From: a virus
Direction: 5' to 3' (one strand)
DNA: 64,000 nt
IMG/VR virus record: IMGVR_UViG_3300046003_007336
Location: 32,001 to 96,000 of that record
Position numbers and translations under genes: made by a program. Under the pieces are notes generated by a model, which did not search any database, had not been told where the DNA came from, and saw only the letters and a list, made by a program, of their open reading frames with translations. Every line of letters begins with the position of its first letter. Within the stretch, counting starts at the first letter, position 1. Positions 21,438 through 21,742 of the stretch are shown here, in pieces.

Positions 21438-21466
21438 TTGACGCCAAATCGTCCTCGAAGTATAAA
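21438..21466 (+). promoter_or_regulatory. sigma70-like promoter of the Ala/Pro tRNA operon
   Basis: TTGACG-N17-TATAAA; also contains TATAAATA. Confidence 0.75.
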
Positions 21467-21475
21467 TAGGACGTT

Positions 21476-21583
21476 ATGTTGATCCTGTTCACCCTCGCTG
21501 CTCTGACCGCAGCCGCTGCCATCGCAGCGGGACAGGCCCCCGTGCGCTTCGCACCAGCCCCGGCTAGCCGACCGCGACCCTAA
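21476..21583 (+). CDS. Putative Ala/Pro-rich leader peptide MLILFTLAALTAAAAIAAGQAPVRFAPAPASRPRP
   Basis: 35 codons with 12 Ala and 5 Pro, between the promoter and tRNA-Ala/Pro genes. Confidence 0.6.
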   Translation: MLILFTLAALTAAAAIAAGQAPVRFAPAPASRPRP

Positions 21584-21666
21584 AGGGTAGCGGTATATAA
21601 GCAGCCAGGATGGTGATCGGCGCGATGCCGATACGTCCAGCAAAACAATCTAGGAAACGTGGCCTT

Positions 21667-21742
21667 GGGGTCATAGCTCAGTTGGTAGAGCGTCTGCTTT
21701 GCAAGCAGAATGTCGTCGGTTCGACTCCGTCTGACTCCACCA
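21667..21742 (+). tRNA. tRNA-Ala(TGC)
   Basis: Full cloverleaf, G3:U70, encoded CCA. Confidence 0.95.

Follow-up and report, generated by a model that had tools for sequence, protein, structure and literature searches.

Why tRNA genes are found in phages, and by what means they are controlled, are long-standing questions, and the genes themselves are usually assumed to be constitutively expressed. In the phage record IMGVR_UViG_3300046003_007336 (IMG/VR), tRNA-Ala and tRNA-Pro genes and an alanyl-tRNA synthetase gene are coupled behind one leader that contains a short, alanine-rich open reading frame (ORF), and this arrangement raises the question of whether the leader is translated to gauge the decoding of the codons that the operon serves. 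We lean towards reading it as a predicted codon-matched, translated, cis-acting sensor, mainly of alanine, which would control the tRNA-Ala/Pro and mini-AlaRS operon through a non-canonical output. The analysis was computational, and the window, to which all coordinates refer, is the whole stretch of 64,000 nucleotides that was analysed (positions 32,001 to 96,000 of the record).

The tRNA-Ala/Pro operon and its surroundings

The single virus record is 198,512 bp long with a G+C content of 57.9%, and encodes, besides a permuted alpha-type tmRNA, 18 tRNA genes. These are grouped by amino acid (Ala/Pro, Gly/Glu, five Leu, single Met and Gln), and nearly all σ70-like promoters in the region of the window are on the + strand. 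The family-B DNA polymerase is split over two genes about 43 kb apart (6964-8865 and 51751-53034), with its N-terminal part matching PHROG 262 at positions 6-486 and its C-terminal part at positions 497-846.

Every member of the array listed in the preliminary description of this DNA was confirmed: tRNA-Ala(TGC), tRNA-Pro(TGG), tRNA-Pro(CGG), tRNA-Ala(GGC), tRNA-Ala(CGC), the mini-AlaRS and tRNA-Pro(GGG), in that order (Table 1). No internal terminators or promoters were found within the unit. The upstream 80-aa gene ends with a weak hairpin and a T-run (site called at 21429), which probably set the tRNA operon apart as a transcription unit of its own; clear canonical terminators are present elsewhere in the phage, for example at 9896, 29011, 42200 and 43386. 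Neither Pfam nor PHROG gave a match for the three ORFs antisense to this region (21241-21522, 21350-21643 and 21564-21674).

Table 1. Features of the leader and of the tRNA-Ala/Pro operon, in window coordinates.
Feature	Position	Strand	Details
Weak hairpin + T-run	21395..21437	+	End of upstream 80-aa gene
Promoter	21438..21468	+	-35 TTGACG 21438-21443, 17 nt, -10 TATAAA 21461-21466
Leader ORF	21476..21583	+	35 codons, 12 Ala and 5 Pro; ATG 21476, stop 21581-21583
Proposed sensor stretch (segment 1)	21497..21529	+	8 of 12 Ala codons, among them the run of four
Segment 2	21544..21568	+	C-rich distal ORF, codons 23-31; predicted to pair with 21601-21623
Stop-codon hairpin	21571..21594	+	Predicted -14.9 kcal/mol; stop in loop, 5' arm formed by last four codons
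Segment 3	21601..21623	+	Predicted to pair with segment 2 or, via 21608-21621, within hairpin 3:4
Hairpin 3:4	21608..21638	+	Predicted core 21616-21621 with 21627-21632
Leader 3' end	21651..21661	+	Can pair with 21475-21487 (including start codon), closing the whole leader
Proposed regulated unit	21667..23609	+	Three tRNA-Ala, three tRNA-Pro, 56-aa ORF, tRNA-like element, mini-AlaRS
tRNA-Ala(TGC)	21667	+	
tRNA-Pro(TGG)	21768	+	
tRNA-Pro(CGG)	21875	+	
tRNA-Ala(GGC)	22036	+	
tRNA-Ala(CGC)	22426	+	
mini-AlaRS ORF	22525-23544	+	Pfam tRNA-synt_2c match (class II AlaRS catalytic core)
tRNA-Pro(GGG)	23535	+	Last tRNA, after mini-AlaRS

Several other elements accompany these genes. A tRNA-like element with a CCACCA end (22583-22661) immediately precedes the mini-AlaRS coding region; it has a weak Rfam match to tRNA-Sec (25.8 bits, E = 0.03), relaxed ARAGORN settings call it a tRNA with an abnormal anticodon loop, and it may mimic a tRNA and be linked to the synthetase. 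A Lys/Glu-rich, coiled-coil-like ORF of 56 aa between tRNA-Ala(GGC) and tRNA-Ala(CGC) (22249-22419) has no Pfam or PHROG match. Two inter-tRNA spacers, 21950-22035 and 22112-22248, are strongly structured (-31 and -58 kcal/mol, respectively) and match no Rfam family. Directly after the last tRNA of the array is an HNH endonuclease gene (23655-24083; PHROG 2255, E = 5e-26) with its own upstream ATAAATA motif.

The promoter and the start of the transcript

A TTGACG-N17-TATAAA promoter had been proposed for the operon and was found as described; the + strand has 27 sites of this kind in all. A consensus promoter scan did not call it, because its -10 hexamer lacks the usual final T. The assignment is supported despite the scan by the alignment of the whole promoter block with the promoter of a tRNA array (in L117) of the related megaphage G001, by the recurrence of an ATAAATA motif (21462-21468) that overlaps the -10 hexamer, and by the presence of the same kind of promoter at the tRNA-Met, tmRNA, Gly/Glu and Leu units. 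The ATAAATA motif has 13 copies on the + strand, mostly 20-35 nt upstream of start codons and usually without a -35 hexamer (for example at 1052, 20693, 23643, 34337 and 46206), and probably serves a class of phage promoters as their -10-like element. A reading as a T4-type late promoter was rejected: the exact 8-mer occurs just once per strand, and so it is not a general late promoter here.

The ATG of the leader ORF is 9 nt downstream of the -10 hexamer, the start site being placed by the hexamers only, and no Shine-Dalgarno sequence was found within the predicted leader transcript. With its ATG so close to the -10 hexamer, the predicted message is therefore leaderless or nearly so. The Gly/Glu leaders have the same 9-nt spacing, both here and in the megaphage G002.

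An alanine-rich leader ORF

The leader ORF has the composition ascribed to it beforehand, with all four alanine codons (GCT 4, GCC 4, GCA 3, GCG 1) and a run of four among its 35 codons. Alanine is encoded at positions 8, 9, 12-15, 17, 18, 21, 26, 28 and 30, and proline at positions 22, 27, 29, 33 and 35, so that the last codon before the stop is a proline codon. The alanine codon use leans to the rarer GCT and GCA, in a sample of only 12 codons.

The alanine excess is clearly not due to chance, and the ORF is a compositional outlier: among the 2151 ORFs of 20-80 aa in the six frames of the whole genome it ranks first by alanine fraction (12/34, binomial p = 9e-6), and an ORF as rich in alanine and proline did not arise in any of 5000 shuffles of the leader. 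These results bear on the caveat that short alanine-rich ORFs are common in GC-rich DNA. One further short ORF in the genome is equally rich in alanine and proline. The proline signal is weaker than the alanine signal. Proline alone does not stand out from the short-ORF background (p = 0.16), CC dinucleotides show no codon phasing in the leader, and alanine with proline is only the fourth best residue pair for this ORF; set against the two sibling leaders of the same genome, proline is enriched (5/34 versus 0/51, Fisher p = 0.0085). The codon-enrichment comparison with the short ORFs of the genome, and with it the suggestion that the leader composition mirrors the content of the cluster, is thus borne out for alanine and remains weak for proline when the ORF is taken alone. 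A further proposal, that the ORF and the cluster share an Ala-then-Pro order, fails, the tRNA order being Ala-Pro-Pro-Ala-Ala-(AlaRS)-Pro.

Many of the alanine codons are located within GCWGC-type stems, and coding and structure are partly confounded. However, the counts of GC dinucleotides in the three phases of the codon are 12:2:2 (p = 0.002, uncorrected for frame choice), and because this phasing spans several separate stems, it argues for constraint at the level of codons and not of RNA structure alone.

The N-terminus had also been said to resemble a signal peptide, and the ORF might then encode a true small peptide, membrane-bound or exported, whose only link with the tRNAs is the common transcript. 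Residues 1-19 do form a strongly hydrophobic core (mean Kyte-Doolittle 2.18), and a tail with three arginines fits a single-pass topology with the C-terminus inside the cell. However, the N-region carries no positive charge, and the alanine richness is atypical: the hydrophobic 19-mer contains eight or nine alanines, above every one of the 61 hydrophobic 19-mers in the long ORFs of the phage (maximum 7, median 2). Furthermore, the peptide matches no Pfam or PHROGs family, has no Atlas look-alike scoring at least 0.9 (best score 0.83), and has two sibling leaders in the same position that match their tRNAs and are not membrane-like. A membrane or exported peptide is considered unlikely, with a small probability of being right.

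Alternative folds of the leader RNA

The whole leader is predicted to fold better than shuffled sequences (z = -2.6), and both hairpins noted previously, one over the stop codon and a second with its core at 21616-21632, are present, the second extending to the limits given in Table 1 for hairpin 3:4. Segment 1 contains a local hairpin (21513-21530). The duplex of segments 2 and 3 has a predicted energy of -29.1 kcal/mol (shuffles, -19.1 +/- 3.5; as good in 12 of 2000), and hairpin 3:4 one of -15.6 kcal/mol (shuffles, -8.9 +/- 2.5; as good in 22 of 2000). These pairings belong to two mutually exclusive folds of the whole leader, predicted at -74.3 and -74.8 kcal/mol and thus 0.5 kcal/mol apart. 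When a ribosome footprint is masked on the alanine run, the 2:3 fold is kept in the predictions, whereas the 3:4 fold results when the footprint is on the distal ORF or on the stop codon. In these models the layout of the leader is the classical arrangement of segment 1, 2:3 and 3:4, with the alanine codons in the sensor position.

The classical output is missing. No U-run follows position 21594 or 21638, no terminator was called in the leader, and Rfam gave no match there at gathering or lenient thresholds. Neither hairpin is an intrinsic terminator, because there is no U-run behind either of them. The stop-codon hairpin was separately rejected as a terminator: a terminating ribosome would cover it, and a ribosome stalled upstream would leave it to switch the operon off. 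Within the ORF region C exceeds G, by up to 21 C to 11 G per 40 nt.

Leaders matched to their arrays in the same genome

All three multi-tRNA arrays of this phage have a promoter, a short ORF and a leader of about 195-200 nt. When the three leaders were scored against the residues of the three arrays, each was enriched for the residues of its own array (z = 5.2, 4.3 and 4.9) and for no other (off-diagonal values, -1.3 to 2.2), which upholds the parallel with the Leu and Gly/Glu clusters that had originally been drawn. Unlike the multi-tRNA arrays, the single tRNA-Met and the tmRNA have no leader ORF. None of the three leaders has a U-run.

Two side observations concern these units. In all three leaders the stop codon (21581-21583, 33794-33796 and 48512-48514) is in the loop of a hairpin, of which the 5' arm consists of the last codons of the ORF, in the Gly/Glu and Leu leaders as in the Ala/Pro leader. 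The tRNA-Met (42057-42093) and the tmRNA (44109) start only a few bases from their own promoters, which combine a TTGAC-type -35 element, 18 nt and TAAATA.

Leaders of related megaphages

The C-terminal part of the DNA polymerase is 66-67% identical to those of G001, G002 and G003, which are megaphage records of 415-608 kb. For each tRNA array of the window, G001 and G002, the upstream 330 nt were searched for the ORF with the best enrichment for any array's residue set. Over the 17 arrays the enrichment for the array's own set summed to 49.4, compared with 21.9 +/- 5.0 for permuted sets, and none of 20000 permutations reached the observed value. A hold-out set, G003-G005, was fetched only after the hypothesis had been fixed; it gave 19.7 against 11.9 +/- 3.3 (p = 0.014), with some of its arrays lacking such an ORF. 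When ORFs were chosen without regard to composition, proline accounted for 12 of 107 residues at arrays with tRNA-Pro against 17 of 459 (p = 0.003), or p = 0.034 with the present leader omitted. A codon-matched leader before tRNA arrays is thus a real feature of the clade, these statistics bearing on the clade and not on the activity of this particular copy.

An Ile/Leu-Phe motif is common to the first nine residues of the leaders at 21476 and 33683 and of L112, L120 and L122, which are leaders of different arrays and genomes; this suggests that the leaders are paralogues, their middle parts apparently re-spelled for each array. In G002, ARAGORN calls a tRNA with the anticodon CTA, of the amber-reading type (L124:1086-1173), and in its neighbourhood several Rfam tRNA hits have a length of about 107 nt, as if these tRNA genes contained inserts.

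An orthologue of the Ala/Pro leader was sought in several ways. No relative of the mini-AlaRS from viral or metagenome collections exceeds 60% identity, and these relatives yielded no orthologous leader; they are mostly from low-GC marine phages in which the tRNA-Ala, where present, comes directly after the promoter with no leader. No syntenic relative was found for the two genes upstream of the leader and no phage closer than the megaphages came up, a search for the exact pattern of the conserved promoter block returned G001 only, and blastn and tblastx comparisons of 20700-24100 with the arrays of the relatives matched the tRNAs alone.

The leader might instead stay untranslated, as a structured 5' part of the tRNA precursor with a role in, for example, its processing or stability; the frame and its alanine codons would then be a by-product of GC-rich GCWGC stems. 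The folding of the leader relative to shuffles, the location of most alanine codons in stems, the absence of both a Shine-Dalgarno sequence and a terminator, and the failure to find an orthologue in which the frame is kept are all compatible with such a role. It would not account for GC dinucleotides phased over several independent stems, for the absence of such an ORF from the shuffled leaders, for an ATG spacing identical to that of the Gly/Glu leaders here and in G002, or for a composition that fits the array in all three cases here and across the relatives. An untranslated leader is considered unlikely, if still worth weighing, and translation of the ORF remains the preferred reading.

Loss of function has to be weighed as well. 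Several leaders of the relatives are textbook attenuators, with a terminal GC hairpin, a T-run and, where the ORF ends, an antiterminator partner; a Shine-Dalgarno sequence and/or a GC hairpin with T-run was found in L116, L117, L119, L120 and L125. Leaders at the homologous position in the relatives have a 5' UTR of about 50 nt with a Shine-Dalgarno sequence, of which about 44 nt, including the Shine-Dalgarno sequence, is missing from the Ala/Pro leader. Leaders of the relatives at similar promoters carry canonical terminators and this one does not; this difference and the missing stretch of 5' UTR would be expected if the Ala/Pro leader were a decayed attenuator of the relatives' type, whose ORF persists in front of a now constitutive operon. 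Against this, the extreme alanine bias and the phasing are unlikely to last without selection, the balanced two-state fold is still there, and U-runs are absent not only from all three leaders of this phage but also from the Gly/Glu leaders of G001 and G002. Because it is shared in this way, the absence of U-runs looks like an alternative output that has been kept, and decay is judged quite unlikely.

A model for sensing and output

In the proposed mechanism of a translated sensor, transcription would start a few bases upstream of the ATG or at the ATG itself, and a single ribosome would load while the leader is being synthesized. If alanine decoding is slow, the ribosome would wait in codons 8-18, leaving segment 2 free to pair with segment 3. 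If alanine decoding is fast, the ribosome would reach the distal ORF and the stop-codon hairpin and cover them, and hairpin 3:4 would form by self-folding. The weakest step is the next one, in which the 3:4 state would lower the output of the operon. Canonical intrinsic termination is unlikely as the means, because hairpin 3:4 has no U-run; likely routes are Rho, loading on a C-rich ORF that would by then be bare, a pause, or a change in how the precursor is processed. That Rho would gain access to the ORF stretch once hairpin 3:4 has formed is a plausible conjecture, because C is well above G there. The net effect would be that alanine (perhaps also proline) tRNAs and the AlaRS are increased when decoding of the corresponding codons is limiting.

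The model does not explain proline sensing, because the proline codons are located in or beside segment 2, where a stall would favour the 3:4 state. A proline codon just before the stop, as in this leader, slows termination in other systems.

A more general scheme, which we would put forward only tentatively and as slightly short of an even call, is that the clade runs each array from a codon-matched leader, gauges decoding for each codon set separately and tops up only the tRNAs that are missing, with the Ala/Pro unit, which also drives the mini-AlaRS, working through Rho or processing in place of a terminator. If so, these phages would sense a loss of decoding such as may follow depletion of host tRNAs or cleavage by an anticodon nuclease.

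Comparison with known systems

To our knowledge, leader-peptide control has been described only for genes of amino-acid biosynthesis, transport and aminoacyl-tRNA synthesis, and a full-text literature search found no paper on leader-peptide control of tRNA genes, the single hit that mentioned a tRNA operon being unrelated. The classical attenuators trpL, hisL, leuL, pheL, thrL and ilvL resemble the Ala/Pro leader in having a short ORF after the promoter that is rich in the cognate codons, and in having these sensor codons ahead of a segment whose pairing alternates between 2:3 and 3:4, as predicted here. Their stop codon is in structured RNA and one ribosome gauges the speed of decoding, features that the model of the Ala/Pro leader would reproduce. 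They control biosynthetic enzymes, whereas the Ala/Pro leader precedes tRNAs and a synthetase, and it further differs from them in the absence of a U-run at 3:4, in its probably leaderless start and in being phage-borne. Because the intrinsic terminator is missing, the leader is not assigned to the canonical leader-peptide attenuators, and its absence points to a second kind of output for leaders of this type.

The leaders of G001-G003 have the same order of promoter, short ORF spelled according to the array, and tRNA array; they share with the Ala/Pro leader the N-terminal Ile/Leu-Phe motif and, in G001, the homologous promoter block. In contrast to L116, L117, L119, L120 and L125, the Ala/Pro leader has neither a Shine-Dalgarno sequence nor a hairpin with T-run, and it is narrowed to alanine and proline.

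In Streptomyces lividans TK24, leaderless leader peptides, including an alanine-rich alaL before alaS, have been predicted from RNA-seq and not functionally tested, and several of these leaders also lack a clear U-rich terminator (PMC8079986). Among the published cases consulted, this set is the nearest parallel, alaL being alanine-rich, leaderless and upstream of an alanyl-tRNA synthetase gene. Each of the S. lividans leaders is followed by one host gene, for a synthetase or for biosynthesis, whereas in the phage six tRNA genes come first.

Outputs without an intrinsic terminator are represented by tnaC, mgtL and mgtP, which are Rho-dependent or stall-based leaders, and of which mgtL and mgtP sense proline codons. 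In leaders of this type the position of the ribosome decides whether a C-rich stretch is exposed, as is proposed here, and by analogy the proline codons of the Ala/Pro leader, including the one just before the stop, could be stall sites. These leaders regulate protein-coding genes, whereas the operon considered here is one of tRNA genes, for which Rho action and stalling are putative.

The T-box, a riboswitch that works without an ORF by direct binding of uncharged tRNA, follows the same logic, in that genes of translation respond to the state of the cognate tRNA; the Ala/Pro leader uses an ORF for this and has no Rfam match. If it does report the decoding speed of the codons that its operon serves, it would form a direct feedback loop on the tRNA supply.
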